NCBI GenBank assembly: GCA_902500125.1
Contig: GCA_902500125.1_4132.1
Length of the DNA stretch: 64,000 nt
Origin: Escherichia coli
GTDB taxonomy: Bacteria > Pseudomonadota > Gammaproteobacteria > Enterobacterales > Enterobacteriaceae
Reading direction: 5' to 3' (one strand)
The translations under genes and the position numbers were made by a program. The notes beneath the pieces are model-generated. The model had not been told where the DNA came from, did no database searches, and was given only the letters and a program-made list of their open reading frames with translations. The stretch's first letter is position 1, and the number at the start of each line of letters is the position of its first letter. Below are positions 30,394 through 46,435 of this stretch, one piece after another.

Positions 30394-30571
30394 AGAATAC
30401 TACATAGAGAAACTCCCAATGTATCTCCAACACCTTCTACCAACAGAACCATTGGGTATAGAAAAAAACTACGAAAAAGACTACTTCATTCAGTGCACTA
30501 AATCCTCGATATATATTGAAGACTATAATCGAGTACTGTATCACATCCTTTTACTAATATATAGGTACTAA
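30386..30571 (+). CDS. family A small tandem paralog
   Basis: Internal ATG (MYKEYYIEKL) of track ORF 30323..30571; ends LLIYRY. Confidence 0.5.
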   Translation: MYKEYYIEKLPMYLQHLLPTEPLGIEKNYEKDYFIQCTKSSIYIEDYNRVLYHILLLIYRY

Positions 30572-30572
30572 T

Positions 30573-30755
30573 ATGCACAAAGAATACTACACACAATTTC
30601 TCCCCAGCATTTTTGAACACTACGCCAGATACAAAGTCCCTATGGATAACGATTTGGCAGTACTGGGATTCAATAACTGCATAGAACGAAGTATAGAAAA
30701 TAGTAGTAGTTATGACCAGCTATATAACACTATCCTACTTATATTCAGGTACTAA
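30573..30755 (+). CDS. family A small tandem paralog
   Basis: Track ORF; MHKEYYTQF..LLIFRY. Confidence 0.55.
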   Translation: MHKEYYTQFLPSIFEHYARYKVPMDNDLAVLGFNNCIERSIENSSSYDQLYNTILLIFRY

Positions 30756-30756
30756 T

Positions 30757-30945
30757 ATGCATAAAGAATACTACACAAAATATTTCCCAATGTACCTCAG
30801 TACTAATCTATTAGATAAACCTCGCGGTATCAATGCACAAAACGATAAAGTGTACTTTACTATGTGCACTAAAGCATGTATACTAGATTTTGACAGCTAT
30901 CATCGAGTACTGTATCATACCCTGTACCTAGCTTTCGTATTCTAA
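30757..30945 (+). CDS. family A small tandem paralog
   Basis: Internal ATG (MHKEYYTKY) of track ORF 30712..30945. Confidence 0.5.
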   Translation: MHKEYYTKYFPMYLSTNLLDKPRGINAQNDKVYFTMCTKACILDFDSYHRVLYHTLYLAFVF

Positions 30946-30954
30946 AAGAACAAT

Positions 30955-31140
30955 ATGCATAAAGAATTCTACTTAAGCCATCTCGATCTAAACTCCCAAA
31001 TGCTTATACCACTAATCCCAATAGATATCAAGGATAAGAAAAATACCGAACAATTCATTTACCATACACAGTGTGCGATCACCCCAAATTACATTCCATA
31101 TGAATTGTACTACATTATCGCCCTAATATATAGGTACTAA
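30955..31140 (+). CDS. family A small tandem paralog
   Basis: Track ORF; ends ALIYRY. Confidence 0.55.
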   Translation: MHKEFYLSHLDLNSQMLIPLIPIDIKDKKNTEQFIYHTQCAITPNYIPYELYYIIALIYRY

Positions 31141-31141
31141 T

Positions 31142-31327
31142 ATGCATAGAGAATACTACACACAATTTGTTAAAGGGAACTACAAACATGCCGTACCCAG
31201 AACCCCTTTAAATTCTCATGACCCAAGTACTATATTCTTGTTTAATGACGCAATACGTACAGTACTCAATACTAAAGATGAACAAGTGCAGTACGTATTC
31301 TTACTATTACTTATATACAGACACTAA
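31142..31327 (+). CDS. family A small tandem paralog
   Basis: Track ORF; ends LLLIYRH. Confidence 0.55.
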   Translation: MHREYYTQFVKGNYKHAVPRTPLNSHDPSTIFLFNDAIRTVLNTKDEQVQYVFLLLLIYRH

Positions 31328-31332
31328 CTAAT

Positions 31333-31542
31333 ATGAATAAAGAACATAAAGAATACTACTCCAAACACCTCAGCCCCTCAGAACAAATGTTTCTAAGGAC
31401 TACTCCACCTTTAAGTACTAATACATTTTTCGGCAGAGTATGCTACAATAATTGTATTCAAATGACTTTAAACGCAAACGAAGATGGTAACAGTACTAAC
31501 CTGTACTCAGGTATCATAGGTATACTATTCCTGTATGAATAA
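31333..31542 (+). CDS. family A small tandem paralog
   Basis: Track ORF; near-duplicate of 28349..28558. Confidence 0.55.
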   Translation: MNKEHKEYYSKHLSPSEQMFLRTTPPLSTNTFFGRVCYNNCIQMTLNANEDGNSTNLYSGIIGILFLYE

Positions 31543-31723
31543 TTACAAAGACTTCTATTTGAATACACTACCTACTGTACTTTCTCTAAGTGCTCAATGT
31601 AAAATCCCGCTGGATAATGCTTACGCCAGATATAGCTATTCCATAACTGTTAATCGATGTATAGAGAATCATTGCAGTACTAACCAGTACTATAACATAA
31701 TCCTACTTATATTCAGGTACTAA
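31535..31723 (+). CDS. family A small tandem paralog
   Basis: Track ORF; ends LLIFRY. Confidence 0.55.
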   Translation: MNNYKDFYLNTLPTVLSLSAQCKIPLDNAYARYSYSITVNRCIENHCSTNQYYNIILLIFRY

Positions 31724-31724
31724 T

Positions 31725-31907
31725 ATGAATAAAGAACATAAAGAATTCTATATACGAAAACTAACATTCGTCCCCGTAAGAATATATAAAGAATGCGACC
31801 CAAGATTATACCTATGGCACTTCAATGAGTGCATAAAAGATTCTATATACCATAAGAACTATAAAGAACAATTGTGCTCAGTACTAACACTAGTACTATC
31901 ATATTAA
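31725..31907 (+). CDS. family A small tandem paralog
   Basis: Track ORF. Confidence 0.55.
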   Translation: MNKEHKEFYIRKLTFVPVRIYKECDPRLYLWHFNECIKDSIYHKNYKEQLCSVLTLVLSY

Positions 31908-32218: not shown

Positions 32219-32762
32219 GCTAAACCCCGTAATCATAGGTAGTCATAAGTAATCATATATAAACATTTATATGAGCACCGTAGAATCACAGAATGATTAT
32301 ATATGATTCAGTACTGATTAGTATAGACAAGATTGCTCAAGAATGCACGGAAATGTGTGTGAATGATTATATATGATTCAGTACTGATATGCCACTAAGT
32401 AGGCAGAGGAAGTCTGCCGTACTTTGTAGTTTCCAAGCTCCTTTTCCATTTTGCAAATTACATCAAATGTAATCAAAAGTAATCACACAATGATTAGTAC
32501 TGAATTATTACTTTCACCTTAATTACAATTACCCTTTTACCCTTCGGGGTAAAATTCCATTACCCCTTGAGGCTCCAGCAAAAAGTTGGTTAGTACTCCA
32601 TCCTAAATCTCGATCCTAAAAATTTTGGAGTACCTATGAAATAAAAGTTGGATCTTCGAAAGTTGAAATTTACGTTGGGACGTTTATGATTTGTGGGATA
32701 TAATGATGTTTGTAGTCGGGTAGTTCTCAAGAATATCAGTACTGAATAATGAAAGAAAGCTA

Positions 32763-32790
32763 TTGACATTATGATTCAGTACTGTATAAT
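32763..32790 (+). promoter_or_regulatory. sigma70-like promoter in non-coding island
   Basis: TTGACA-N16-TATAAT with no ORF downstream. Confidence 0.45.
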
Positions 32791-32796
32791 GTTCTA

Positions 32797-32912
32797 CATA
32801 GAGAGATGAGTTGCCGCAAACAATTCATTCACTCTACCTCCTGTCGTGAGACAGTACTGAAAGGATAGTTCCTCCTATGGGTGGTACATCTTTTTATAAC
32901 CTCTTTTTTCGT
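32797..32912 (+). ncRNA. candidate small RNA
   Basis: Promoter upstream, no ATG-initiated ORF, GNRA-loop hairpin CTGTC-GTGA-GACAG, T-run at 3' end. Confidence 0.25.
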
Positions 32913-33180
32913 AATATAAACAGTACTGATATTAACAGAATGGTGTCAGTACTGATTTTAATCTAAAGCATTATGCCACCAGCTTGTGCTGGTGGATTCC
33001 CTCTAACAGTATTCAGTACTACATGATGGTCTTCATCCTCCTAGGGTAACATAGTGAGGGCTATGATGGCAGTACTGAATACTCCCTTTCAAAAGATAGA
33101 TCTATGGTATAGTACTGACGGATTTTGGGTGTAGTTACCCTGGGTGGATTTTGGACGTAGATATGTCTAGCCCTCCAGAA

Positions 33181-33332
33181 GTCTGGAAGTAAAGATGGCT
33201 ATCCATCTAGACGGCTAAACGGCTAGATTTCTGGATGGCTGGATGGCTAGATTTCTGGATGGCTGGATGGCTAGACGTTTGGACGGCTAAACGGCTAGAT
33301 GGTTACACGTCTGGAAGTATAGACGGCTAAAT
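33181..33332. repeat. iteron-like short direct repeats
   Basis: GGATGGCT/GACGGCTA units; 24-bp ATTTCTGGATGGCTGGATGGCTAG duplicated in tandem; flanked by GTCTGGAAGTA. Confidence 0.55.
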
Positions 33333-33949
33333 CAAAATTTTATTTTGTTTTTTCCAATAGTTCCCCTACCGCGTGGGGATAGTTTCCCCGCAGTATCTGG
33401 AGTTAGATTTTTCTGAATCTGGAATCATTATCTTATAAACTGGGGGCAATGTCAACGGCCTGGACGGATATTTTTAAAAATTTTTTCAGTACTGAATTTT
33501 GGGCGTAACTATGCACCCGGTGGGCTTGAGTCTTTCTCGACTTGATGGAACTATTATACAGTACTGAAAAAATAAAGCAATACCCTGGAAGCAAAAAAAT
33601 TTTAATTAATTTGCTTGCTATCCTGGGCCGGACTATGGTACTATATTTCAGTACTGAGAAAGTGCGTTTGCCTGCTAGGGTGCGGGAGTGTATCCTTTTT
33701 TTATATCTTGAATTTTGGGCGTAATTCCGCACCCCCTGGGGTTTCCGCTTTCTCGCGTCTATGTAGTAATTATACGCTTTTTCAGGATCAAGTCAATACC
33801 TAAAAACAAAATAATTGAAAATAATTTAACGCGTTTAAACGGCCCGTAAAGCCCTGGAATGATTAGAATGGTGCAAATGTATAGCTTAGGTGTATTAATG
33901 CGTTAGAATGCGTCTGAGGCCGTTTTACGGGGTATAGGGATGATTTAGT

Positions 33950-34110
33950 GGATTGATTCAGTACTGAATAATAGTACTCCTATATAGAAAGATAGTTCCC
34001 CTGGATTGATTCAGTACTGAATAATAGTACTCCTATATAGAAAGATAGTTCCCCTGGATGGTTGCAGTACTGAATGATAGTACTGAATAATAGTTCCCCT
34101 ATATAGAAAG
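33950..34110. repeat. 53-bp direct repeat, two copies plus partial third
   Basis: GGATTGATTCAGTACTGAATAATAGTACTCCTATATAGAAAGATAGTTCCCCT repeated in tandem. Confidence 0.6.
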
Positions 34111-34142
34111 AAAACTATTTTAAAAGTATTTGTAGAAAGTAC

Positions 34143-34202
34143 TTGCAAACTAAGTTTAACGGCGTATAATGTTTTACATCGAGAGCGGGAACACTTCCCG
34201 CT
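34143..34202 (+). promoter_or_regulatory. promoter plus leader hairpin unit
   Basis: TTGCAA-N16-TATAAT then AGCGGGA-loop-TCCCGCT hairpin. Confidence 0.55.
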
Positions 34203-34225
34203 ACATATTACGAGAGATTAAAACG

Positions 34226-34588
34226 ATGGCGACTCAAATCACTAAAATTATTGCTAACCTGGTTAACTTTCGCGACGAGATGAAAGATCTTCCGGCAGAA
34301 ACGGTAAAAATTCACATTTCAGCTTATCGGGAACTTATTGCAATGTTACCGCTTAAGCGTGAACAATACGCCGCGACCGTGATGCTTGATGCGATGATCC
34401 ATAAGATGATCGCCAGTGATTTAACGATGGTTTATCAGTATATGGGCGAAAATTTCGCGGTGTATAGTAAACCAGTACCAGGAATGGAAAGTACAGAAGT
34501 ATTACACGGTTTAAATTTAAAACAAGATGCATGGGATAATATGCCTCGTTTCCTGGTATGGGCTGACAGTGGCAAGATTTACGAATAA
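34226..34588 (+). CDS. hypothetical protein (120 aa)
   Basis: Internal ATG of track ORF 34169..34588; track start lies in -10 box. Confidence 0.55.
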   Translation: MATQITKIIANLVNFRDEMKDLPAETVKIHISAYRELIAMLPLKREQYAATVMLDAMIHKMIASDLTMVYQYMGENFAVYSKPVPGMESTEVLHGLNLKQDAWDNMPRFLVWADSGKIYE

Positions 34589-34602
34589 GTTTTAGAAAGT
34601 AC

Positions 34603-34660
34603 TTGCAAACTAAGTTTAAAAGCGTATAATGTTTTACATCAGGTGGGGAATAGTTCCCCA
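34603..34660 (+). promoter_or_regulatory. promoter plus leader hairpin unit
   Basis: TTGCAA-N16-TATAAT then GGGGAA-TAGT-TCCCC. Confidence 0.55.
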
Positions 34661-34681
34661 CTATATAAGAGGATTAAAAAA

Positions 34682-34921
34682 ATGGCTAAATCAAAAATGT
34701 TCTTAGGTCACAAAAACAAAACTCATTGGAATGTAAGCCTTTGGATTAATAACGATGAGTCATTGTACCGGTTGGCCCAGGACTTTATTAACGATAGCAC
34801 TAATCGCAATGATGCGGCCCGTCATATGATGTTATTTTTAGAACAGACTGGACAAGATAAAACACCGGACGGATTCAAATATAGCACTACTGCGATCCGT
34901 GCGGCTATGGTTGGAATGTAA
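34682..34921 (+). CDS. hypothetical protein, paralog of 36724..36963
   Basis: Internal ATG of track ORF; GHKNKTHWNVSLWINN..TPDGFKYSTTAIRAAMVGM shared. Confidence 0.55.
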   Translation: MAKSKMFLGHKNKTHWNVSLWINNDESLYRLAQDFINDSTNRNDAARHMMLFLEQTGQDKTPDGFKYSTTAIRAAMVGM

Positions 34922-35009
34922 TAGAATAGAATTTATTTAAAGTACTATTGCACGGGGATAGTACTTTATAATAGTGTTTTATTCATACACCAACGATAAG
35001 GGCAACAGC

Positions 35010-35276
35010 ATGAATATTAAGTATTTTGCGACGCGTGAACAAGCTCGGATCGCCGCTCGCCAGGACGGGGCAACGTTTAAAGATATGGGCGTACAATCGG
35101 AACGTGGTAAACGTTGGGCCATTGTAAAGCGTAGTACAGCCAGATCATTACAGTACTGGTTAGCGGCGTTAAAAAGTCCCGATAGTGTATCGCGTCGAGT
35201 GGTAGAAATAAAGCTCGACCGAAAGGGCAACCGCGTGACCGTGTACCGTACTAAAAAGATTGCAGTACTTGAATAA
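35010..35276 (+). CDS. hypothetical protein, paralog of 46942..47337
   Basis: Internal ATG of track ORF; YFATREQARIAAR..DRKGNRVTVY shared. Confidence 0.55.
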   Translation: MNIKYFATREQARIAARQDGATFKDMGVQSERGKRWAIVKRSTARSLQYWLAALKSPDSVSRRVVEIKLDRKGNRVTVYRTKKIAVLE

Positions 35277-35283
35277 AAAGTAC

Positions 35284-35342
35284 TTGCACCGTACTGATAA
35301 AAGCGTATAATGTTTTACATCGAGAGCGGGAACTCTTCCCGC
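35284..35342 (+). promoter_or_regulatory. promoter plus leader hairpin unit
   Basis: TTGCAC-N16-TATAAT then GCGGGAA-CTC-TTCCCGC. Confidence 0.5.
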
Positions 35343-35363
35343 CTATAACCTGGAGTAATGAAA

Positions 35364-35594
35364 ATGACTAATATGTATATGACTGAAGTTAAAACCGTAA
35401 AAGATACTACCACGAATAAAACTACTTACTTACAGCGGATCTGTGGTGTATGGCAACGTATCAGCAAATCAAAGTACTTTAAATTAACATCATATGCAAA
35501 CCGTTCGGATTCATTCAGTACTGAAATAAAAGGTAATAAAGTACACCAATACGGCACTTATTATTATTACAGCCTGGACGCGATTGCAGTATAA
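35364..35594 (+). CDS. hypothetical protein
   Basis: Track ORF 35358..35594; second ATG has better RBS spacing. Confidence 0.5.
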   Translation: MTNMYMTEVKTVKDTTTNKTTYLQRICGVWQRISKSKYFKLTSYANRSDSFSTEIKGNKVHQYGTYYYYSLDAIAV

Positions 35595-35843
35595 GCAGTT
35601 TACAAATCTTTACAATTGCCGGTATTGACTTATTTTGTCAGTACTGGCATAATGTATTCATTGGCAGATAAGCCGTAGCCCATAGGGTGCGGGAGTGTAT
35701 CTATAGAAAAATTAGTTTAGTATAGTTACAATTGTGCACCCGGTGGGTTAGCTGTTGTCATGGGGTATATTATGCCAGTACTTGATAATGCTGTCAATAC
35801 TTTTTTTTAATATTCAGTACTGAAAACTATTTTTAAAAAGTAC

Positions 35844-35989
35844 TTGTAAACTATGTTTAAAGGCGTATAATGTTTTACATCAGGACGGGGAACGAAATAA
35901 GTAACTTCCCGTTAAGTAGCCCAGGAGTAAGGCACACGAAAAACTCCCCTGATAAAATAGTTTGACAATAGAAAGTAAAAGCGTATAAT
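35844..35989 (+). promoter_or_regulatory. dual-promoter module enclosing conserved about 80-nt element (copy 1)
   Basis: TTGTAA..TATAAT, conserved ATG-free 35882-35960 with hairpin, then TTGACA-N16-TATAAT. Confidence 0.45.
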
Positions 35990-36021
35990 ACTTACATCAA
36001 CTACTGAATGAGGGTTACAAA

Positions 36022-36633
36022 ATGAAAACTATCACTACTACTACTTTTGTTATGGCTTTTTCTGAACTGAACGCAGAACAAAAAACGGCGGCTATCGAAC
36101 TGGTTCGGGATCGTGAGCGTTCATGTGAGGATAATTTCTTTGCTGAGGGCGTTATCGAGTACTATAAAGAAACAGTACTACCAGAATACGGCATAGATGA
36201 AGCTGAATTGCAATACAGTGGTTTTTGGTCGCAAGGTGACGGTGCATCAATCAGTACTAACCACGTTGACGCTGAGAAGTTTTTACGCAAGGTTAAGGCG
36301 TTAACGAAATATCGTTCAATCCGTCACCTGTTGAACGAGGATGATTTAGAAATGAGTGTAGAACGTTTCCAATCACGCTACGCACACGAAAACACGGTAG
36401 GCGGTTGCGTTGATACTCGCTACACTGATTTAACTGTAAAACAGGCGGCATTGGCTGAGGATCTGGAAAACTTACTGACTGATGCGATCCGTGAATTATC
36501 TCGTAAGTTGTACCGTGATTTAGAGAATGCATATGAGGATCAATTCACTACTGAAAACATTACTGCACTGATTGAGGGTAACGAATATCAATTCAATGTT
36601 ATTGATGGCGTAGTGGAATCAATCGAATATTAA
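36022..36633 (+). CDS. hypothetical protein (203 aa)
   Basis: Track ORF; GAGGG RBS. Confidence 0.6.
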   Translation: MKTITTTTFVMAFSELNAEQKTAAIELVRDRERSCEDNFFAEGVIEYYKETVLPEYGIDEAELQYSGFWSQGDGASISTNHVDAEKFLRKVKALTKYRSIRHLLNEDDLEMSVERFQSRYAHENTVGGCVDTRYTDLTVKQAALAEDLENLLTDAIRELSRKLYRDLENAYEDQFTTENITALIEGNEYQFNVIDGVVESIEY

Positions 36634-36645
36634 TTTAAAAAGTAC

Positions 36646-36706
36646 TTGTAAACTAAGTTTAAAAGCGTATAATACTTTACATCAAGGCGGGGAGTGGTTC
36701 CCCGCT
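36646..36706 (+). promoter_or_regulatory. promoter plus leader hairpin unit
   Basis: TTGTAA-N16-TATAAT then GCGGGGA-GTGG-TTCCCCGC. Confidence 0.55.
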
Positions 36707-36723
36707 CAAACGAGGATTTAAAA

Positions 36724-36963
36724 ATGGCTAGTACTAAAACTTACAACGGACACAAAAACAAAACTCATTGGAATGTAAGCCTTTGGATTAATAACGGTGA
36801 GTCATTGTATCGGCTTGCTCAAAGTTGCATCGCACAAAGTAGAACTAAAGATATTGCTGCGGAATGTATGTACCGCAGATTAAAAGCCAACGGTACTACT
36901 ACAACGCCGGACGGCTTTAAGTATAGCACTACTGCGATCCGTGCTGCAATGGTTGGAATGTAA
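36724..36963 (+). CDS. hypothetical protein, paralog of 34682..34921
   Basis: Internal ATG of track ORF 36694..36963. Confidence 0.55.
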   Translation: MASTKTYNGHKNKTHWNVSLWINNGESLYRLAQSCIAQSRTKDIAAECMYRRLKANGTTTTPDGFKYSTTAIRAAMVGM

Positions 36964-37020
36964 TATTCAGTACTGAGATAATGGCGGGTAATAGTTCCCG
37001 CCTTTACTGAGGGTTATCTA

Positions 37021-37281
37021 ATGAGTAAAGTAATTAGCTATACAGCACTAAGCAAGTCATTATCTATTAGCCAGTGCACCGATGGTTATTGGCTTTATGA
37101 TGAAACGCGTGGAATGAATTTAGCTATGCGTGCAAAAACTGCTGAGGCGGCGTATCTTGAGGCACTGGAATACTACCAGGAACGTTTAACGGAAGTAGAA
37201 GAAGATTATAAAAGCCTCAAAGCGAAAGTAGATCATTTCGTCGGTCAATTCATCGAGGAAGACGACGATAAACAATACTGA
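37021..37281 (+). CDS. hypothetical protein (86 aa)
   Basis: Track ORF; GAGGG RBS. Confidence 0.55.
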   Translation: MSKVISYTALSKSLSISQCTDGYWLYDETRGMNLAMRAKTAEAAYLEALEYYQERLTEVEEDYKSLKAKVDHFVGQFIEEDDDKQY

Positions 37282-37291
37282 AAAAAAGTAC

Positions 37292-37350
37292 TTGCAATTA
37301 GTTTTCAGTACTGTATAATGGTTTACATCAAAGGGAGAAATGGTTCTCCC
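37292..37350 (+). promoter_or_regulatory. promoter plus leader hairpin unit
   Basis: TTGCAA-N16-TATAAT then GGGAGAA-ATGG-TTCTCCC. Confidence 0.55.
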
Positions 37351-37369
37351 TGGTAATGAGGAAAATAAA

Positions 37370-37591
37370 ATGGCTAATATCACTACTCTTTCCCAACTGG
37401 AAGCACTGGTGAAATCTATGCGGGAACATGCCGACAAAATCGGCGTACAAGATCCAGCCGTTTGCTTCTGCGACGAATTGAATGATGATACCCTGGTAAT
37501 AGCAGAAGTCCAGGACGTTTCTAACTATTCATCGCGTTACACTGGCGGCGTAGCAAATAAAGGCGACTTCTGTTTATACCTTACAAAATAA
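37370..37591 (+). CDS. hypothetical protein
   Basis: Internal ATG of track ORF 37340..37591 after GAGGAAAATAAA. Confidence 0.55.
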   Translation: MANITTLSQLEALVKSMREHADKIGVQDPAVCFCDELNDDTLVIAEVQDVSNYSSRYTGGVANKGDFCLYLTK

Positions 37592-37760
37592 CAACGCGGG
37601 GAGATAATAACTCCCCGTTACTTTTTCAGTACTGAATCATTTAATAGACGGATCTCGGCACCCGGTGGGTTAGTGACTGTTTCGTCTTGATGTAGTAATT
37701 ATGCCAGTACTGGATGCACTTGTCAACAACTATTTTTCAAATACTTTTTATTAAAATACT

Positions 37761-37816
37761 TGCAATTAGTTTTTAAACGCGTATAATGTTTTGCATAGGG
37801 GGAGCGGTTCCCCCTG
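37761..37816 (+). promoter_or_regulatory. promoter plus leader hairpin unit
   Basis: TTGCAA-N16-TATAAT then GGGGGA-GCGG-TTCCCCC. Confidence 0.55.
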
Positions 37817-37835
37817 GTAACTAAGGAATAATAAA

Positions 37836-38072
37836 ATGCTTGAACAAATCAAATCAACGACTTCGAATGTAACGGGAACGGTAGCACACTTTACTAGTGA
37901 TGAATCGCGGGGCGTACCCTATTGTGCTGTACATGTAAACACTGATGGCAACTACTGGTTTACTGTTTACGGATCATATTCCTTTGGACGACCAGGGCAT
38001 CAAAAAATTCTGGATAAAGTACAGCCAACGGGTAAAAATATCACTGCTGAAATGTTTTATAAAAAATCATAA
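37836..38072 (+). CDS. hypothetical protein (78 aa)
   Basis: Track ORF; AAGGA RBS. Confidence 0.55.
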   Translation: MLEQIKSTTSNVTGTVAHFTSDESRGVPYCAVHVNTDGNYWFTVYGSYSFGRPGHQKILDKVQPTGKNITAEMFYKKS

Positions 38073-38077
38073 AGTAC

Positions 38078-38137
38078 TTGATAATAGTTTTTAGTACTGT
38101 ATAATATTTTACATCGCAAGGGGGAGCGGTTCCCCCT
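38078..38137 (+). promoter_or_regulatory. promoter plus leader hairpin unit
   Basis: TTGATA-N16-TATAAT then GGGGGA-GCGG-TTCCCCC. Confidence 0.5.
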
Positions 38138-38156
38138 GGTAACTAAGGATAATCAA

Positions 38157-38456
38157 ATGAAAATTGCAATCATCGCCCTGGCTTTATCTGTTTCCTCTTT
38201 CGCTGTTAATGCGTCATTAGATGTAAGTAGTGAAAAATTCATTCAGTGCACTGTTGCAATGACCGATGAAAGTACTGGCGAGATTGTATTAAAGGATCTG
38301 GAGATTCAGCCGGAAGCATTTAAAAACGGCCCGTTCCATGAAGAAGACGAAAACGGTAGCACGACAATTTATTATGATGCCAGTACTAAACGCGGTTCGG
38401 TCACTGTAATGGATACTGAGAAAGTAACGCATACCGGCGTTATTAATTGCCGTTGA
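38157..38456 (+). CDS. secreted protein with signal peptide
   Basis: Track ORF; N-term MKIAIIALALSVSSFAVNA. Confidence 0.55.
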   Translation: MKIAIIALALSVSSFAVNASLDVSSEKFIQCTVAMTDESTGEIVLKDLEIQPEAFKNGPFHEEDENGSTTIYYDASTKRGSVTVMDTEKVTHTGVINCR

Positions 38457-38477
38457 TAGATACTACGGGGTAACATC

Positions 38478-38708
38478 ATGACTAAGCGAATTGTTTTACT
38501 TAACGAAAGCAGTACTACACAACTACTTAACGCCGTGCATTATGATATTGAAACGAGCGTTAATCTTATCAGTACTGTAGTACTGTTGGACACTGGAAAG
38601 GTCGCCAATGATAAAGCGATTGCAGGTATATTAACGGATCTTGAGCCTGGTAGCAGTGCACCAATAACGTTAAATGGTAAAGTGTTTAATATTTTACTCA
38701 CTGATTAA
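38478..38708 (+). CDS. hypothetical protein (76 aa)
   Basis: Track ORF. Confidence 0.5.
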   Translation: MTKRIVLLNESSTTQLLNAVHYDIETSVNLISTVVLLDTGKVANDKAIAGILTDLEPGSSAPITLNGKVFNILLTD

Positions 38709-38714
38709 GTACAT

Positions 38715-38737
38715 AGCCCACCTGGTGGGCTTTTTTG
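38715..38737 (+). terminator. rho-independent terminator
   Basis: AGCCCACC-T-GGTGGGCT plus TTTTTT. Confidence 0.75.
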
Positions 38738-38790
38738 TTTTTGTAGTATCGTAGTACTGAGATACTTTGAAAATAGTTTTAAGAAAGTAG

Positions 38791-38818
38791 TTGACATTAC
38801 CGCAGAAAAGCGTAGAAT
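38791..38818 (+). promoter_or_regulatory. sigma70-like promoter
   Basis: TTGACA-N16-TAGAAT. Confidence 0.45.
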
Positions 38819-38941
38819 GTATTACATCAAGACGGGGAGCACTAAGTAGACCGCCAGTAAGTCGAACGAAAAACTGGACACGTCGAGAAAACTTTGATAC
38901 ACTAATAAACGTAAACTAAACTTTAATTGAGGATTTATAAA

Positions 38942-39424
38942 ATGGCTAATGTAAAATCATTCATCAAAGCACTGGTAGCAAATGAAACTAACGTCGCGGC
39001 TGAGATCCTGGCTGAACTGGATAACGATACCATGAAAGCGGTACGCAATAATTTTAACATCGCGTACAGTACTGCGAAAGAACTACAAGCAAATAAAGCG
39101 GCAGAGATTGAAGCAGCGAAGGCGGCCCGTGAAGCAGAACTACAAGCAACAATTGAAAGTATCCAGGCGGCAGTAGTTGGGCTGGATCTGGAAGTAGTTA
39201 CCGAGATGGCACAAAAAGCCCTGGCGGTTAAGTACGGGGAAGATAAGCCGGAATCTAAGCCTAAAAAATGGATTCAAGAACGTGTAGCGGTAGTACTTGA
39301 TAACGGGGAAGAATATCTGATTCCGGTGCGTGGTAACTGCATTGCGGTAGTACTGGATGCTATCAAAGAAAGCGGATTGACTCGCGAGGAATGGATCGAA
39401 GCTCATCGCAAAGTTGAAGCATAA
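38942..39424 (+). CDS. hypothetical protein (160 aa), Ala/Glu-rich
   Basis: Internal ATG of track ORF 38927..39424 after GAGGA. Confidence 0.55.
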   Translation: MANVKSFIKALVANETNVAAEILAELDNDTMKAVRNNFNIAYSTAKELQANKAAEIEAAKAAREAELQATIESIQAAVVGLDLEVVTEMAQKALAVKYGEDKPESKPKKWIQERVAVVLDNGEEYLIPVRGNCIAVVLDAIKESGLTREEWIEAHRKVEA

Positions 39425-39445
39425 CAATTAAAGTACTGAATCATT

Positions 39446-39471
39446 AGCCCACTTATACAGTGGGCTTTTTT
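39446..39471 (+). terminator. rho-independent terminator
   Basis: AGCCCACT-TATAC-AGTGGGCT plus TTTTTT. Confidence 0.75.
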
Positions 39472-39625
39472 GTGTTTATCGTTTACCAGGCCACCAGCAC
39501 CGCCTAGAAACGATTCTAACGTATTAAACTGTTTATCTGATGCATTGCCCTAGCTGGTGGCGTTAAAGTCGTTAGAATGCGATTGAGTGCGTTTAAAGTA
39601 TTTTGCAAAAAGTAATAAAAAGTAC

Positions 39626-39684
39626 TTGCACGATTAAGAGATTAGCGTATAATGTTTTACATCGAGAGGGGGAAACGGTTCTCC
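39626..39684 (+). promoter_or_regulatory. promoter plus leader hairpin unit
   Basis: TTGCAC-N16-TATAAT then GGGGA-AACGGT-TCTCC. Confidence 0.5.
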
Positions 39685-39708
39685 TTCCAAATCAAAGGAA
39701 TCAAAACA

Positions 39709-39936
39709 ATGGCTATCGTAATCGCTTATGTAACTGGTACTACTGGCACTTCTTCTACTGTTGCTGTAATTACCAACAAGAAAGGTGCGGAATTACATTC
39801 TGCAATGGATACCTGGGCGGTAAATGAGTTCGGTCAGTGGGCAAGTGTAGCATATGTTGAAACCTATCAAGTGCCAACCATTAGCTTAACGGATCTCGGT
39901 GTAGATCGTATCCTTTGCCTGGATGAATTAAATTAA
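39709..39936 (+). CDS. hypothetical protein (75 aa)
   Basis: Internal ATG of track ORF 39652..39936. Confidence 0.55.
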   Translation: MAIVIAYVTGTTGTSSTVAVITNKKGAELHSAMDTWAVNEFGQWASVAYVETYQVPTISLTDLGVDRILCLDELN

Positions 39937-39944
39937 AAAAGTAC

Positions 39945-40005
39945 TTGCAAAGTAAGTTGGATAAAGTATAATACATTACATCAAGGGGAGAAAATGGTTC
40001 TCCCC
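39945..40005 (+). promoter_or_regulatory. promoter plus leader hairpin unit
   Basis: TTGCAA-N16-TATAAT then GGGGAGA-AAATGG-TTCTCCCC. Confidence 0.55.
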
Positions 40006-40023
40006 ACTAAGAGGAAACTAAAA

Positions 40024-40167
40024 ATGAAAACTTGTCAATGTGGTAAAAAATCTATTACTGGTTTGAAACGGGGCGTTGCTCTTTGTCAGTATCACTATAA
40101 CGCTCAGGTATGGGGTAAAGAGTGGGCCGACCAGGTGGAAGCAGTAAAGAAAGCAAAAAGTAAGTAA
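40024..40167 (+). CDS. small Cys/His-containing protein (47 aa)
   Basis: ATG after AAGAGGAAA RBS; MKTCQCGKK..CQYHY; below track cutoff. Confidence 0.45.
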   Translation: MKTCQCGKKSITGLKRGVALCQYHYNAQVWGKEWADQVEAVKKAKSK

Positions 40168-40186
40168 AATTATTATCACAGTACTA

Positions 40187-40215
40187 TTGACATAGATTGA
40201 TAGTACTGGCATAAT
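40187..40215 (+). promoter_or_regulatory. sigma70-like promoter
   Basis: TTGACA-N17-CATAAT flanked by AGTACT. Confidence 0.5.
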
Positions 40216-40248
40216 AGATTTTATCAAGACAACTAAGAGGAAACAATA

Positions 40249-40461
40249 ATGGCTATCATCACAAAAATCAAAGTAAACAAATCACTGGTTAAGCTGGAAG
40301 AAGTGAAAGAAGGTTATAAAGTATCGTGGTGCGGCATGTATCGGATTTTTACAGATGTTGACGATGCAATCAATTACTACACTGACACGGTAAAAAACTT
40401 TGTTCGTGCTGATGTGGTTATGGCAGTGGCAACACACAAAGCATCGAAAGAAAGTAAGTAA
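40249..40461 (+). CDS. hypothetical protein (70 aa)
   Basis: Track ORF; AAGAGGAAA RBS. Confidence 0.55.
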   Translation: MAIITKIKVNKSLVKLEEVKEGYKVSWCGMYRIFTDVDDAINYYTDTVKNFVRADVVMAVATHKASKESK

Positions 40462-40480
40462 AAATATTATCACAGTACTA

Positions 40481-40509
40481 TTGACATAGTTTGATAGTAC
40501 TGGCATAAT
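40481..40509 (+). promoter_or_regulatory. sigma70-like promoter (duplicate of 40187 unit)
   Basis: Same about 70-nt promoter/leader repeated. Confidence 0.5.
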
Positions 40510-40542
40510 AGATTTTATCAAGACAACTAAGAGGAAATTAAA

Positions 40543-40887
40543 ATGGCTAATATCAACACTATCGCAAAACAAAATATCAACCTGTCTTCTGTTGAAGTTG
40601 TACATATTGCCGCTCGGCGTTGGTTCCAGGCTTCATATGGTAACACTTATTTCTCTTTAAGTGTAGACGTAGAAATTGATGGTAATTTTATTGAAGTAGT
40701 AAACGTGCCGTTCCAATATGGATACGGGGATCACTTTGACACTGTAGCAATGGAAGAATTTAGCAAGGTTATTAATATGGAAGATAAAGAGTTTTTACGC
40801 GGTTCTTATCTTTCCCGTTTTTGCCGTGACAATAATATCACTGTTTACAGTTCGGTAACTGATGTTAAACGCAAAAAAGATCTTTAA
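40543..40887 (+). CDS. hypothetical protein, paralog of 46523..46846
   Basis: Track ORF; shared ..YGYG.. and C-terminal DVKRKKD. Confidence 0.55.
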   Translation: MANINTIAKQNINLSSVEVVHIAARRWFQASYGNTYFSLSVDVEIDGNFIEVVNVPFQYGYGDHFDTVAMEEFSKVINMEDKEFLRGSYLSRFCRDNNITVYSSVTDVKRKKDL

Positions 40888-40967
40888 TTAGCTTTACTTT
40901 ATGCAGATACTTTGATATAGTGTCTGCATAGGGGAAAGAAATTAAATTAACTTAAGAGGATCGTATA

Positions 40968-41237
40968 ATGAAAAATATCAGTACTTTAATCGATGCAGGT
41001 ACACATGTTCGGCGGTCTATGGTTGCAACCAGTACTACAAAACAAGTAGCGAGCGGTTATCTTGTATTTGTGCACGATGGTAAACTCCTGGAACGTTCAA
41101 TCAATTTTGATGTTAAAAACAATTGCCGTTTTATTATCTTTCGCCGTGAACAATATAAGATCGACATTCCAGCGAAGCCCATTAGCGGTGCGTACAATGT
41201 GCAATCATTGTTTGAGCGTCAACCATACACCTATTAA
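40968..41237 (+). CDS. hypothetical protein (89 aa)
   Basis: Track ORF; AAGAGGA RBS. Confidence 0.5.
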   Translation: MKNISTLIDAGTHVRRSMVATSTTKQVASGYLVFVHDGKLLERSINFDVKNNCRFIIFRREQYKIDIPAKPISGAYNVQSLFERQPYTY

Positions 41238-41288
41238 TCAAAACATCGTTAGCGGTCGATTCAGGCCGCTTATATTGGGGATTATACC

Positions 41289-41561
41289 ATGAACGTTAAT
41301 CAAGTACTGAATGAGATCGAAAGCATCATTAAACCGATGAAGCGTACTGATGCTATGTTAACACCGGAAGAATGCCGCCTTTATGAGCGTTACAGCGTCG
41401 AACAAGTCCAGGCAATGGCTATGGCTACCCCAGCCGTTAAACCGCCTGAGAATGCGTTACAGGACGTTACAGGGGATTATATCATCAATCCAGTACTAGG
41501 GAAGATGGCTGCAATCACCGAAGATCAACAAGACTACTTAAGCCAGTACTTAAAAGGTTAA
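41289..41561 (+). CDS. hypothetical protein (90 aa)
   Basis: Track ORF. Confidence 0.5.
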   Translation: MNVNQVLNEIESIIKPMKRTDAMLTPEECRLYERYSVEQVQAMAMATPAVKPPENALQDVTGDYIINPVLGKMAAITEDQQDYLSQYLKG

Positions 41562-41566
41562 TTAAT

Positions 41567-41776
41567 ATGCTTACTGTACAGGATAAGATCGACATCTTAA
41601 AGGTTAATATGTATGTGATTGATGCCGTACCTGGTAAAGTATTTGCATACGATGACACTACTGTAAGCGATTTCTACTATAGCCAGGCCGTGGGGGATCT
41701 TTCTGTACAGTCGGTTATTGAAAACGTAGTTAATGCAGCGTATGAGCATTTACTTTCAAATAGTACTTGCAATTAG
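41567..41776 (+). CDS. hypothetical protein (69 aa)
   Basis: Track ORF. Confidence 0.5.
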   Translation: MLTVQDKIDILKVNMYVIDAVPGKVFAYDDTTVSDFYYSQAVGDLSVQSVIENVVNAAYEHLLSNSTCN

Positions 41777-41826
41777 TTTTTAAACGCGTATAATGTTTTA
41801 CATGAAGGGGAGAAATGATTCTCCCC
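41766..41826 (+). promoter_or_regulatory. promoter plus leader hairpin unit
   Basis: TTGCAA-N17-TATAAT then GGGGAGA-AATGAT-TCTCCCC. Confidence 0.55.
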
Positions 41827-41845
41827 ACTAATTAAGGAATATGAA

Positions 41846-41992
41846 ATGAAAGCATCAAAAAAGAGTAATACTAAGAAAGCACGTTCACCTTTCGCTGGGG
41901 TATTCCCTTTACGTTTCGTTGATGAAGTAGTTTCCTACCCGCCGGGCCTTACTCCTGAGATGGTAGAAAGTTTGCGTAAATCTAAAAAATAG
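41846..41992 (+). CDS. small basic protein (48 aa)
   Basis: ATG after AAGGAATATGAA; below track cutoff. Confidence 0.4.
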   Translation: MKASKKSNTKKARSPFAGVFPLRFVDEVVSYPPGLTPEMVESLRKSKK

Positions 41993-41995
41993 TAC

Positions 41996-42055
41996 TTGCA
42001 ATTAGTTTTTAGTACTGTATAATAGTTTACATGAAGGGGAGAAATGATTCTCCCC
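41996..42055 (+). promoter_or_regulatory. promoter plus leader hairpin unit
   Basis: TTGCAA-N16-TATAAT then GGGGAGA-AATGAT-TCTCCCC. Confidence 0.55.
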
Positions 42056-42073
42056 AATAACAGGAGAAACAAA

Positions 42074-42226
42074 ATGAAACAATACAACGCTCGGTTTGAT
42101 GTTACTATCGGTAACGGCAAAGGTCAATTCTCTTTCAGTACTCGCAAAAGTTATACAGAAAACTTCCTGCGTAATTGTGCACTGACCGCCGCTCAAATTA
42201 AACATTATTTTCAGGCTAAAAAATGA
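42074..42226 (+). CDS. hypothetical protein (50 aa)
   Basis: Internal ATG of track ORF 42044..42226 after CAGGAGAAACAAA. Confidence 0.5.
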   Translation: MKQYNARFDVTIGNGKGQFSFSTRKSYTENFLRNCALTAAQIKHYFQAKK

Positions 42227-42312
42227 AATCATTAGCTTATTACAGTTCAGCGGTGATCGGTGCATTGATCGCGGCATTGTTAGTAACCTATCTATTCTTT
42301 ATGGTGATTTAA
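42223..42312 (+). CDS. small hydrophobic peptide (29 aa)
   Basis: ATGA-coupled to upstream gene; single TM-like segment. Confidence 0.3.
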   Translation: MKSLAYYSSAVIGALIAALLVTYLFFMVI

Positions 42313-42453
42313 ATGAATCCTAACGGTTTAATTTACAGTACTCCTAAAACGAAAGCAGATAAAGCGAAAGCACGTAAAGCGAAAGTAAAGGAGTACATTA
42401 AGCAAGGCATGACGCGAAAGGCCGCACTACTCAGAGTAAAGGCTGAAAAATAA
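42313..42453 (+). CDS. small Lys-rich protein (46 aa)
   Basis: Translationally coupled; followed by terminator module. Confidence 0.3.
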   Translation: MNPNGLIYSTPKTKADKAKARKAKVKEYIKQGMTRKAALLRVKAEK

Positions 42454-42462
42454 TTGAAAAAA

Positions 42463-42545
42463 GGGTTGACTCCGGTCAGTCCCTTTGCTATTATATATAC
42501 ATACCAGCGATACACTGGCGGCCCATAGGGTGCACAAATGTATCT
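42463..42545 (+). promoter_or_regulatory. extended terminator-promoter module with CCCATAGGGTGC motif
   Basis: GGGTTGAC-TCCG-GTCAGTCCC hairpin, TTGACT/TATTAT, then GCCCATAGGGTGCACAAATGTATC. Confidence 0.55.
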
Positions 42546-42588
42546 ATTATATAAGTATTGAGTACTGAAAACTATTTTTAAAAAGTAC

Positions 42589-42647
42589 TTGCAAACTATC
42601 TCAATAAGCGTATAATGTTTTACATCGAAAGGGGAAACGGTTTCCCC
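42589..42647 (+). promoter_or_regulatory. promoter plus leader hairpin unit
   Basis: TTGCAA-N16-TATAAT then GGGGAAA-CGG-TTTCCCC. Confidence 0.55.
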
Positions 42648-42667
42648 TGGTAATAAGGAAACAAATC

Positions 42668-43009
42668 ATGACTATCTCAATTGCTCAATCTAACTTTGAA
42701 AATGAAATCATCGCCCAGGCACTGCGTTTAAATGATGGTCGGGCCGAAATTAATTACGGTTTCAATTCAGGCGGTTGTGAAAAATATCAGTACTTTGTAA
42801 CGGCTGATGGCGGTGTCCTGGGTATCAATACAGTTATTGTAAACATCCAAAAAATTAATTTCAATGATCCAGACGATAGCCAGTTTTACATCACGGGCGT
42901 AGACGTGAACTATGAGGATGACTCACTAACTGATGACTACACTGGTGAAACGTTAGAAAGTGCATACTGTGAAGATGATTATCAGTCCGGTCCAGAAGAT
43001 TTCGAATAA
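42668..43009 (+). CDS. hypothetical protein (113 aa)
   Basis: Track ORF; AAGGAAACAAA RBS. Confidence 0.55.
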   Translation: MTISIAQSNFENEIIAQALRLNDGRAEINYGFNSGGCEKYQYFVTADGGVLGINTVIVNIQKINFNDPDDSQFYITGVDVNYEDDSLTDDYTGETLESAYCEDDYQSGPEDFE

Positions 43010-43023
43010 TATAAAAAAATAGT

Positions 43024-43083
43024 TTGACAATAGATTATAGTACTGTATAATAGTTTACATCAAGGGGAGAAAAACTTCTCCCC
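43024..43083 (+). promoter_or_regulatory. promoter plus leader hairpin unit
   Basis: TTGACA-N16-TATAAT then GGGGAGAA-AAAC-TTCTCCCC. Confidence 0.55.
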
Positions 43084-43105
43084 ACTAACAGAGAGAGAAA
43101 ACAAA

Positions 43106-43318
43106 ATGGCTAATATCTGCACTGTACTGAAAAATGCAAAACAAGTTTTATTTTCTGATCACGATCATTTAAACAAGGATATTACTGGCGTTCGGAATAT
43201 CAAAGATGTAAAAAGTGTTATGGGTATCTATTGCAATATGAAACGTGTTGGAACGTTCGGCGACAAAGTACTATACCAGGCAGGGGATTACAATTTTACA
43301 CTGACTATCATTAACTAA
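43106..43318 (+). CDS. hypothetical protein (70 aa)
   Basis: Track ORF. Confidence 0.55.
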   Translation: MANICTVLKNAKQVLFSDHDHLNKDITGVRNIKDVKSVMGIYCNMKRVGTFGDKVLYQAGDYNFTLTIIN

Positions 43319-43337
43319 AAATATATTACCAGTACTA

Positions 43338-43365
43338 TTGACATAGTTTGATAGTACTGTATAAT
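43338..43365 (+). promoter_or_regulatory. sigma70-like promoter
   Basis: TTGACA-N16-TATAAT. Confidence 0.5.
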
Positions 43366-43409
43366 AAGTTTTATAAACAGTAGTTAACTTAACCTAAGAG
43401 AGAAATAAA

Positions 43410-43553
43410 ATGATCGCACTGGATTCATTCATCGACGCAGTACTGGCAAAAACTGGCGAGGATCTGACCGCAGAACAATACGCGATGATCGAGCAATGTC
43501 AGCAAGACGGTAAATCGGTGAAAGATACTGTTAAGATTATCCGCAAGATGTAA
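43410..43553 (+). CDS. small protein (47 aa)
   Basis: ATG after AAGAGAGAAATAAA; below track cutoff. Confidence 0.4.
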   Translation: MIALDSFIDAVLAKTGEDLTAEQYAMIEQCQQDGKSVKDTVKIIRKM

Positions 43554-43560
43554 TATTATA

Positions 43561-43590
43561 GCCCACTGGTCAACGCTGGTGGGCTTTAAT
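43561..43590 (+). terminator. rho-independent terminator
   Basis: GCCCAC-loop-GTGGGC plus TTT. Confidence 0.55.
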
Positions 43591-43652
43591 CCTTTACCCT
43601 ATACAATGCCAGTACTAAACCGTTTATCTCGTTAGAATGCGTTACAGGACGT

Positions 43653-44443: not shown

Positions 44444-44450
44444 AAAGTAA

Positions 44451-44478
44451 TTGACAGTACTGAAAGATAGTGTATAAT
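44451..44478 (+). promoter_or_regulatory. sigma70-like promoter
   Basis: TTGACA-N16-TATAAT. Confidence 0.5.
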
Positions 44479-44864: not shown

Positions 44865-44867
44865 TAC

Positions 44868-45982: not shown

Positions 45983-46126
45983 TTGCATTGTAATTAGAAT
46001 CAAGTATAATGTTTTACATCAGGACGGGGAACGAAACAAGTAACCCCGTTAAGTAGTCCAGGAGTAAGACATACGAAAAACTCCCCTGATAAAATAGTTT
46101 GACAATAGAAAGTAAACGAGTATAAT
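45983..46126 (+). promoter_or_regulatory. dual-promoter module enclosing conserved about 80-nt element (copy 2)
   Basis: Near-identical to 35844..35989, including element 46021-46098. Confidence 0.45.
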
Positions 46127-46159: not shown

Positions 46160-46435
46160 ATGCGGATTCTACTGACAGCTAACGAAATCGAACAAGTACT
46201 GACTACTAACCTGGAACAATGGAAACGTGATGCAGATATCCAGGCGGTTCAATGGCTTAACGATAAGTTAACGCCGGATGACTTAAGCAAGATTGTAGAT
46301 CCTCAATTCTACGAAGATATTCACGACACGGCTTTAAGCGTCGAGGATGTACTTGATAAGCATTACATTAATACCGATTTACAGGTTTACGGGCGTAAAA
46401 ACTTTATCACTATTCACGACATTTACAATACTTAA
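46160..46435 (+). CDS. hypothetical protein (91 aa)
   Basis: Track ORF. Confidence 0.55.
   Translation: MRILLTANEIEQVLTTNLEQWKRDADIQAVQWLNDKLTPDDLSKIVDPQFYEDIHDTALSVEDVLDKHYINTDLQVYGRKNFITIHDIYNT

Follow-up and report, generated by a model that had tools for sequence, protein, structure and literature searches.

The window analysed here is a 64,000-nucleotide (nt) stretch of an Escherichia coli assembly (GCA_902500125.1, contig GCA_902500125.1_4132.1), and our subject is a short non-coding element that occurs in it downstream of strong promoters. The region belongs to Asteriusvirus (92-97% identity by BLAST), a genus of ~350-kb jumbo coliphages in the Rak2-like group, to which 121Q and PBECO4 belong. 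Its part from ~33 to 53 kb is the early-gene region, consisting of dense short plus-strand genes that each possess their own sigma70-type promoter, 5' stem-loop and ribosome site (repeat families D1-D7). In copy A of the element, a sigma70-type promoter P1 (35844..35871; TTGTAA-16-TATAAT, of the standard window promoter family D2/D6, predicted start ~35877-35879) is followed by ~80 nt free of ATG (35877-35957), a second promoter P2 (35962..35989; TTGACA-16-TATAAT, 12/12 consensus) and the gene 36022..36633, which encodes a 203-amino-acid protein (phrog_5162, function unknown). Copy B has the same layout, with P1 at 45983..46010 (TTGCAT-16-TATAAT; family D2), the ATG-free element at 46016-46094, P2 at 46099..46126 (again TTGACA-16-TATAAT, 12/12 consensus) and the gene 46160..46435 for a protein of 91 amino acids (phrog_14947, function unknown); all these features are on the plus strand.

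The initial annotation had described two near-identical ATG-free segments of ~80 nt, each set between two promoters with a TTGACA-N16-TATAAT promoter behind it, and both were located exactly as described. The copies differ by ~4 substitutions and one 2-nt indel, no ATG occurs 3' of the -10 element in either of them, and each half of the annotated consensus has exactly two exact matches in the window (none in 100 shuffles). The element is thus repeated, but the repeated block is longer than had been proposed; it starts at ~35815 (AGTACTGAAAACTATTTTTAAAAAGTACTTG), includes P2 and ends near +12 of the P2 leader, and inside it the P1 spacers differ between the copies. The proteins encoded at 36022 and 46160 are non-homologous, as had been supposed: they give no alignment at E <= 100. 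The repeat is therefore not part of a gene duplication, the case that the initial annotation had named as counter-evidence. A 31-codon open reading frame across copy A (35870-35965) was rejected, because it starts inside the -10 element and its frame is broken by the indel in copy B.

The element had been reported to be present twice. However, a third and divergent copy (copy 3), first recovered near 38843 by a degenerate pattern, is also found in the window. A covariance model of the conserved core (R1) identifies exactly three sites in the 64 kb, namely 35909-35952 (copy A; 57.9 bits, E 2e-13), 46046-46089 (copy B; 60.7 bits, E 4e-14) and 38839-38882 (copy 3; 52.9 bits, E ~4e-12), and the fourth-best match reaches only E ~1. 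A marginal match at 32392-32426 was rejected as an unrelated hairpin. Copy 3 (plus strand; whole copy 38824-38886, RNA domain 38831..38884) has no P0 hairpin (see below), and its promoter (38791..38818; TTGACA-16-TAGAAT) lies directly after an intrinsic-terminator-like hairpin at ~38716-38745. Downstream of it are a weak promoter-like site (TGGACA-17-TACACT), a leader of ~55 nt and the gene 38942-39424; because only this weak site follows, the fold effectively lies in the 5' untranslated region of that gene. Copy 3 is kept at 95-100% in Asteriusvirus records generally.

The element is an H-type RNA pseudoknot with the strand order S1-5', S2-5', S1-3', S2-3'. The initial annotation had noted a hairpin, which does exist, but the real fold is this knot flanked by a 5' hairpin (P0) and a closing helix, together a domain of ~75 nt. 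In the core, helix S1 has the form GUAGNC/GN'C..AC, helix S2 comprises 4-5 base pairs (bp) of free sequence, and loop 3 is A-rich (GAAAAA). The UAA before each S1 strand and the GAAAA(A) of loop 3 are invariant unpaired bases that are also present in the window copies, and the A-rich loop 3 would lie in the groove of S1. The domain of copy A (35879..35953) has the closing helix AUCAGG 35879-35884 / CCUGAU 35948-35953, P0 at 35885-35912, S1 GUAGCC 35916-35921 / GGC 35931-35933 plus AC 35936-35937, S2 GGAG 35924-35927 / CUCC 35944-35947 and loop 3 GAAAAA at 35938-35943. In copy B (46018..46090) the corresponding parts are the closing helix 46018-46023 / 46085-46090, P0 46024-46049, S1 GUAGUC 46053-46058 / GAC 46068-46070 plus AC 46073-46074, S2 GGAG 46061-46064 / CUCC 46081-46084 and loop 3 at 46075-46080. 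Copy 3 forms a closing helix GACG 38831-38834 / CGUC 38881-38884, S1 GUAGAC 38846-38851 / GUC 38861-38863 plus AC 38866-38867, and S2 CCAG 38854-38857 / CUGG 38874-38877, with loop 3 at 38868-38873. All three copies therefore fit the core, with C-G (A), U-A (B) and A-U (copy 3) at N-N', and with GGAG/CUCC (A and B) or CCAG/CUGG (copy 3) as S2.

Two structural forms can be distinguished outside the core. In the window type (copies A and B) the 3' tail pairs with the sequence 5' of P0 so that the closing helix is nested, and P0 has a larger loop of 12-15 nt that varies. In the T7-like form, P0 is a 4-bp hairpin that abuts UAAGUAG and its 6-nt loop pairs with the 3' tail (GUCAA/UUGAC, GUCGGU/ACCGAC, GUCAUC/GAUGAC, GAUUAG/CUAAUC and GUCAGA/UCUGAC in different phages). 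This loop-tail pairing is not found in the window copies, which represent a structural variant whose core still qualifies. The jumbo phages of Klebsiella and Salmonella and phage LTH01 share the nested arrangement of the window but have other stem sequences.

Small aptamers of the preQ1-I type resemble the fold in topology and size (S1 of 5-6 bp, loop 3 of 6 A-rich nt, S2 of 4-5 bp), and these aptamers as well as the T4 gene 32 leader pseudoknot share with it the strand order, an A-rich loop 3, the small size and the position in a leader. Together with the invariant unpaired nucleotides at the helix junction, this would suit a riboswitch-like element in which the knot binds a metabolite or ion and alters the fate of the transcripts that start at P1 or, in T7, at A1. 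However, no expression platform is recognisable: there is neither a conserved terminator nor a sequestered ribosome site, and the GGAG that might be taken for one is GCCUG in T7. The genes downstream are unrelated and without known function, no autoregulated gene is associated with the fold, and unlike the known knots it carries additional helices (P0 and the closing or loop-tail helix). Nor is there a match to any riboswitch model of Rfam, even with the threshold at E <= 10. A ligand-sensing role seems quite improbable.

Covariation was first assessed on 13 distinct close variants, which come from Asteriusvirus and ~145-kb myoviruses (Justusliebigvirus outra, muut and EmilieFrey; phages A73 and A7_1). 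The minimum-free-energy fold, an outer helix AUCAGG/CCUGAU around two hairpins (z-scores -1.9 to -3.8), was discarded, as 41 of 500 shuffles scored as high and only one compensatory pair was seen (GGAG/CUCC to GGUG/CACC in EJP2); it was superseded by the pseudoknot once T7-like homologues were available. The stems are kept among the close variants mostly because nothing varies. An alignment of 13 variants of the window type under the pseudoknot model is 97.1% paired compared with 95.8% when shuffled (1/500), with a covariation score of 0.072 versus 0.046 (0/500). The N and N' of the search pattern, on the other hand, covary perfectly across the wider set, which identifies a second helix, S1, interleaved with S2. 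In the core alignment of 26 distinct variants, 96.2% of cells are paired versus 79.8% in shuffled alignments (0/500), and the covariation score is 0.412 versus 0.137, with slid registers not exceeding 0.094. The N-N' pair of S1 is A-U in 17 variants, U-A in five and C-G in three, and S2 occurs as CCUG/CAGG, CCAG/CUGG, GGAG/CUCC, GGUG/CACC and CUUG/CAAG, three of its pairs having changed on both sides. A four-helix model of the T7-like form gives a similar picture for 23 variants (95% paired versus 82% shuffled; covariation 0.341 versus 0.108), with 11 pairs changed on both sides against 5.7 +/- 1.3 in shuffles (0/500). The covariation between copies and related phages that the initial annotation had named as a check is thus present, and extends across four phage groups.

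G-U pairs are found in S1, S2 and P0, and would turn into C-A mismatches on the opposite strand; selection therefore acts on the sense-strand RNA rather than on duplex DNA. The conserved 'ACG' of the element is the 3' strand of S1; it is ACG and not ATG in all but two variants, and these two (EJP2 copy 1 and 121Q copy 3) retain a G-U pair. The GGAG that resembles a Shine-Dalgarno sequence is likewise one version of the S2 5' strand, and reads GCCUG or CCAG in the other types. As both motifs are accounted for by the helices, a reading of them as coding signals or as remnants of such signals is removed. For the same reason a micro-gene or leader peptide (AGGAG-N8-ACG and nine codons to the TGA within the TTGACA of P2) was rejected; its frame is moreover shifted by indels.

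Comparison of orthologous copies shows that the RNA is better conserved than third codon positions in all three cases (copy A versus 121Q, 91.4% and 84.7%; copy B versus EJP2, 98.7% and 87.9%; copy 3 versus 121Q, 93.7% and 71.9%). In two of the three it is also clearly above the non-coding flanks, which in copy B reach 83.9% (upstream), 93.9% (P1) and 93.8% (P2 and leader), and in copy 3 74.7% (upstream), 90.9% (P1) and 74.5% (leader). The RNA fold is under purifying selection. In copy A the RNA lies below the upstream flank (upstream 97.2%, P1 97.0%, P2 and leader 89.1%), and this comparison is among the points that would favour a non-functional relic, i.e. a decayed cassette of promoter, stem-loop, Shine-Dalgarno sequence and start codon that was left by recombination and conserved through recent spread. 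The first half of the element does look like the standard cassette: an AGGAG stands eight nt ahead of an ACG that takes the place of the ATG of other cassettes; EJP2 copy 1 has an ATG at precisely that position, and promoter cassettes are demonstrably recombination substrates. Yet a relic would not be expected to show compensatory changes in both knot stems in four phage groups, nor to exceed third codon positions in every comparison and the non-coding flanks in most, nor to be present in 486 T7-like genomes. The ACG/AUG alternation is explained by G-C and G-U pairs in S1 and the Shine-Dalgarno-like sequence is not kept in T7-type copies, so that we consider this origin extremely improbable.

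The T7-like homologues came to light when EJP2 copy 1, the most divergent window-type sequence, was used as a BLAST query and gave weak matches to T7-like phages (E = 0.7). In Klebsiella phage Pkp-1 the matching segment has an early sigma70 promoter on either side; its GUUAAGUAGUC is the same and its 16-nt 'loop' (UAAGACAUACGAAAAA) identical, whereas the stem (GCCUG/CAGGC) and the outer helix differ. In T7 itself the motif is found at 551-590, between the promoters A1 (498) and A2 (626), with an R1 score of 66 bits, and this 128-nt interval carries no annotation in the T7 reference record. A degenerate pattern recovered 32 loci from IMG/VR, mostly on ~39-kb T7-like contigs, and a T7-type query matched 486 phage records with hosts that include Escherichia, Klebsiella, Salmonella, Yersinia, Enterobacter, Citrobacter, Serratia and Aeromonas. 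Among the T7-type matches listed there was no RNA annotation and only occasional hypothetical-protein calls. The window type occurs in 45 records of Asteriusvirus or Justusliebigvirus type, the copy-3 type is also present in jumbo phages of Erwinia, Klebsiella and Salmonella, and the family extends to phage LTH01.

Outside phages the element seems to be absent. None of 5,426 E. coli genomes contains a match, which leaves host mimicry without support; a pattern scan of bacterial genomes gave three matches, of which two are due to chance and one is a phage-derived T7-like contig; and a metagenome scan with the type-specific pattern returned Asteriusvirus contigs only. Rfam 15, whose families include preQ1-I, pistol, twister and ribosomal-protein leaders, gave no match at gathering score in the window, and lowering the threshold to E <= 10 or <= 5 around the three copies, in T7 and in Pkp-1 yielded only noise. 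Searches of the literature by sequence strings and by topic found no description of the fold, the sequence appearing only as the T7 A1 transcription template, though an older account elsewhere is possible. We are highly confident of the fold, and that these are members of one widespread family of early-leader pseudoknot RNAs, which includes the T7 A1-A2 interval and appears to be uncatalogued. T7 is among the best-studied genomes, yet its A1-A2 interval encodes a covarying double-pseudoknot RNA. The fold offers a new family for RNA databases and a concrete, small and genetically tractable target, and in the annotation of jumbo phages it explains a class of 'empty' promoter-to-promoter intervals.

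Two further observations were made on the carriers. In phage CMSTMSU (L003, 2499-2578), a record flagged 'UNVERIFIED', deletions in the S2 5' strand and in a C-run would break the fold, and given the status of the record they look like sequencing errors rather than a natural variant. The A2-A3 interval of T7-like phages (T7 nt 626-750; 247-370 in the T7 sequence L014) has a conserved sequence of its own (..GGTGTCTTCTAGGTGACTTAAGCGCACC..), and an 8-bp complement exists between GTCAACCG and the A3 -35 region (CGGTTGAC); this interval may hold a second structured leader.

Every genuine instance of the fold is on the sense strand and, wherever a simple scan recognised the upstream promoter, lies 9-61 nt after the -10 element. 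The predicted start of the RNA in copies A and B is 2-3 nt 5' of the closing helix. This proximity to the 5' end is what would be expected of a stabilising or insulating structure that shields P1 or A1 transcripts from decay dependent on the 5' end, or that aids their folding. About 30 other early cassettes of the window carry a plain 5' hairpin at the same place, and the 5' arm of P0 resembles those hairpins (ACATCAGGTGGGGAATAGTTCCCCAC at 34641). However, a plain hairpin would then suffice, and a double pseudoknot with ~20 invariant unpaired or loop bases, maintained from T7 to jumbo phages, remains unexplained. The T7 fold, moreover, begins at about +53, away from the 5' end, and such a stabilising function is in our view improbable.

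Promoters also follow the fold with great regularity. Almost all genuine instances have a promoter-like site whose start lies 2-47 nt beyond the core, the exceptions being two Kayfunavirus excerpts of ~360 bases with none and copy 3 with its weak match. These following promoters differ widely in sequence, and in T7 the -35 element of A2 doubles as the 3' strand of the loop-tail helix. The P2 of the window resembles the promoter at the A2 position of one T7-like group (TTGACAATAGCAGTAAACG in the L034 type versus TTGACAATAGAAAGTAAA in the window; TTGACAATAG..AGTAAACG), which suggests common descent of fold and promoter. Many unrelated genes follow the fold, and its presence is independent of the identity of the downstream gene.

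A direct example of exchange is provided by two Justusliebigvirus genomes. Between muut (L002, 2440-3010) and outra (L001, 2440-2700) P1 and the RNA stay and the downstream cassette is swapped. Inserted in muut, between its own RNA copy and the gene that directly follows the RNA in outra, are a P2, a 91-amino-acid gene and the next promoter, which match window 46095-46480 base for base in the stretches compared by eye. The junctions of this swap are the boundary between the 3' end of the fold and P2, and the next promoter. The comparison shows that an Asteriusvirus was the source from which muut acquired P2, the copy B gene and the promoter after it, an exchange between unrelated phage families, and the swap indicates that promoter-fold modules are recombination substrates between such families. 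The fold itself has also been transferred horizontally, at least once at its border with the promoter that follows. For the annotation of jumbo phages, such exchange of cassettes between families is a further point. A comparable system is PeSL of T4-type phages, in which repeated promoter and stem-loop modules flank small variable early genes and serve as recombination substrates. The outra/muut swap is alike in having its junctions in the module, but the order of parts differs, since in PeSL a terminator-like stem-loop precedes the promoter and here the structure follows it. Moreover, the fold is a covarying pseudoknot with conserved loops that is selected as RNA, beyond any use as a stretch of homology, and is common to unrelated phage families.

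The position of the fold also bears on a possible action in cis, in which the nascent RNA would bind its own RNA polymerase or a Nus factor, in the manner of HK022 put or of nut/boxA, and so make the enzyme resist pausing, Rho and terminators. At least three phage groups rely on the host polymerase at this stage and have the fold near the promoter end of early transcripts made by that enzyme. Several copies occur per genome, each after a terminator-like hairpin (for copy A by reading the sequence). In size (~70 nt) and in having an A-rich strand that could form a minor-groove triplex, the fold is reminiscent of putRNA, and an RNA triplex does form part of the put fold (PMC9378689). HK022 putL and putR are likewise structured RNAs of ~70 nt without an adjacent protein cofactor gene, present in more than one copy and each 3' of an early host-polymerase promoter. 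However, put consists of two stem-loops and the window fold is a pseudoknot; put and nut sites are 3' of their promoters, put indeed 3' of all the promoters of its operon, whereas further promoters follow the window fold. No homology to put was found when R1 was searched, in that direction only, against HK022 22-32 kb, the expected putL/putR stretch.

The lambda nut sites and the rrn leader are likewise leader RNA signals of early or rRNA operons, and many T7-like leaders carry a perfect boxA (CGCTCTTTAACAA) 3' of the fold, in one contig only 23 nt after it. On the other hand, the distance from fold to boxA is unfixed (23-381 nt) and boxA is absent in many carrier phages. None is present near the window loci at 35.8, 38.8 and 46.0 kb, so that a boxA adjacent to the hairpin is lacking there. 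The boxB of lambda is a simple 15-nt hairpin, and no N-like protein is implicated for the fold. Since strong promoters (A2, A3, P2) are located 3' of the fold, most polymerases that enter the genes never make it, and A1 transcripts made in vitro are reported still to stop at the T7 early terminator. Taken together, an effect in cis on the transcribing polymerase seems rather unlikely, though it is the main rival of the explanation favoured below and stands ahead of the stabilising, sensing or relic explanations. The window does contain one perfect boxA-like 12-mer (GCTCTTTAACAA; 2899-2910, minus strand; ~0.01 expected by chance as an estimate), which was rejected as a partner of the fold because it is 33 kb away and apparently in coding sequence with no obvious leader.

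The explanation that we favour, with a probability of roughly 40%, is that the fold is an autonomous RNA domain that binds a putative conserved host component. As soon as infection begins, host RNA polymerase would transcribe it from a strong sigma70 promoter, and promoter and fold together would constitute a self-contained 'RNA gene' rather than a regulator of whichever gene follows. The product would be a ligand or decoy for a conserved component of Enterobacterales hosts (e.g. a transcription, termination or RNA-decay factor), and might do its work while still forming the 5' part of the early transcript, or as a piece cleaved from it. Autonomy is favoured by the strong downstream promoters and by the promoter-fold unit that stays fixed while cassettes change; because A2, A3 or P2 lie 3' of the fold, most transcripts of the downstream genes do not contain it. 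The initial annotation had suggested that the segment is transcribed apart from the gene, as a small RNA or a regulatory leader. Its functional non-coding RNA is borne out by covariation, strand and conservation, but the discrete transcript of ~80-100 nt that it envisaged is not, as no terminator follows.

Several points weigh against an autonomous domain. There is no T-run terminator after copy A or B and no terminator-like site after any of the three copies, so that, barring processing, transcripts from P1 would be expected to continue across P2 into the gene; nor does a demonstrated processing site follow the fold. No transcript data for the carrier phages were found in the sources searched. 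As the sequences are related, the covariation events are fewer than the sequences, and the closing helix of the window type is invariant, so that covariation cannot test it there. The regular presence of a following promoter could also mean that the function is tied to that promoter rather than autonomous. This near-universal promoter is accounted for neither by the autonomous domain nor by the alternatives above, but recombination at promoter homology would account for it. A role of a trailing polymerase that pushes a polymerase at P2 was rejected from the positions, as the geometry fails: collision would precede transcription of the knot.

In records that start at the physical genome end the element lies near the left end, at ~2.7-4.8 kb (mostly 3.4-3.7 kb) and at 13.5-15.5 kb, and the annotated direct terminal repeat encloses it; its place is thus in the repeat that forms the left end of the packaged DNA. 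By likeness to T5 and T7, the terminal repeat with the element would be the first DNA to enter the cell. One may speculate further, with somewhat less confidence than for the autonomous domain as such, that the fold is an RNA-only device which binds a conserved host factor and neutralises or re-programs it before any phage protein exists. Its targets may include RNA polymerase, Rho or Nus factors, the degradosome or an RNA-sensing defence, and the device may be a shared possession of T7-like phages that jumbo phages and rV5/phAPEC8-like myoviruses obtained by horizontal transfer. If this were true, an RNA-only element for host takeover or anti-defence would reside inside the T7 A1 leader. Conservation in several hundred T7-like phages and exchange with unrelated large enterobacterial phages point to a general function in early infection performed by RNA alone.

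A second repeated non-coding family is also found in the early region, at 42446-42545, 45834-45945, 48841-48940 and 51594-51690, with a convergent pair on both strands at 35620-35800. It is composed of a terminator-like hairpin containing a promoter (AAAGGGATTGACTCCGGTCAGTCCCTTT then GCTATTATAT), followed by a conserved GCCCAYMGGGTGC....TGTATCTAT segment. One copy is directly 5' of copy B, and the convergent pair is 5' of copy A. This family has no Rfam match and may be another small transcribed element.

The same cassette is present on nearly every small early gene, at ~30 sites within ~32750-52260 of the window (e.g. 34125, 37275, 41979, 45123 and 49275). Its parts follow in the order of a AAAAAGTACTTGCA-type or TTGACA promoter, ACATC, a GGGGAGAA..TTCTCCCC 5' stem-loop and a Shine-Dalgarno sequence, and the promoter style AAAGTRCTTGC is common to the window cassettes and some T7-like contigs (L019, L034). 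An exact 53-nt tandem duplication occurs at 33949-34054. Just 5' of the first early genes, a gene-poor stretch (30536-31756) near the expected start of the terminal repeat contains four dispersed repeats of ~69 nt (CTGTATCACAT..GGTACTAATATGCA..). Neither transfer RNA nor transfer-messenger RNA genes were found in the 64-kb window. On the minus strand, 19718-27860 holds about seven paralogous genes of ~1.1-1.2 kb with conserved 5' ends and upstream regions (families D8, D10 and D12), which the 121Q annotation describes as RCC1-like 'DNA condensation' proteins. Smaller paralogous genes are arranged in tandem at 53296-53804 (205-nt spacing) and at 55152-58135 (spacing of ~635-960 nt).

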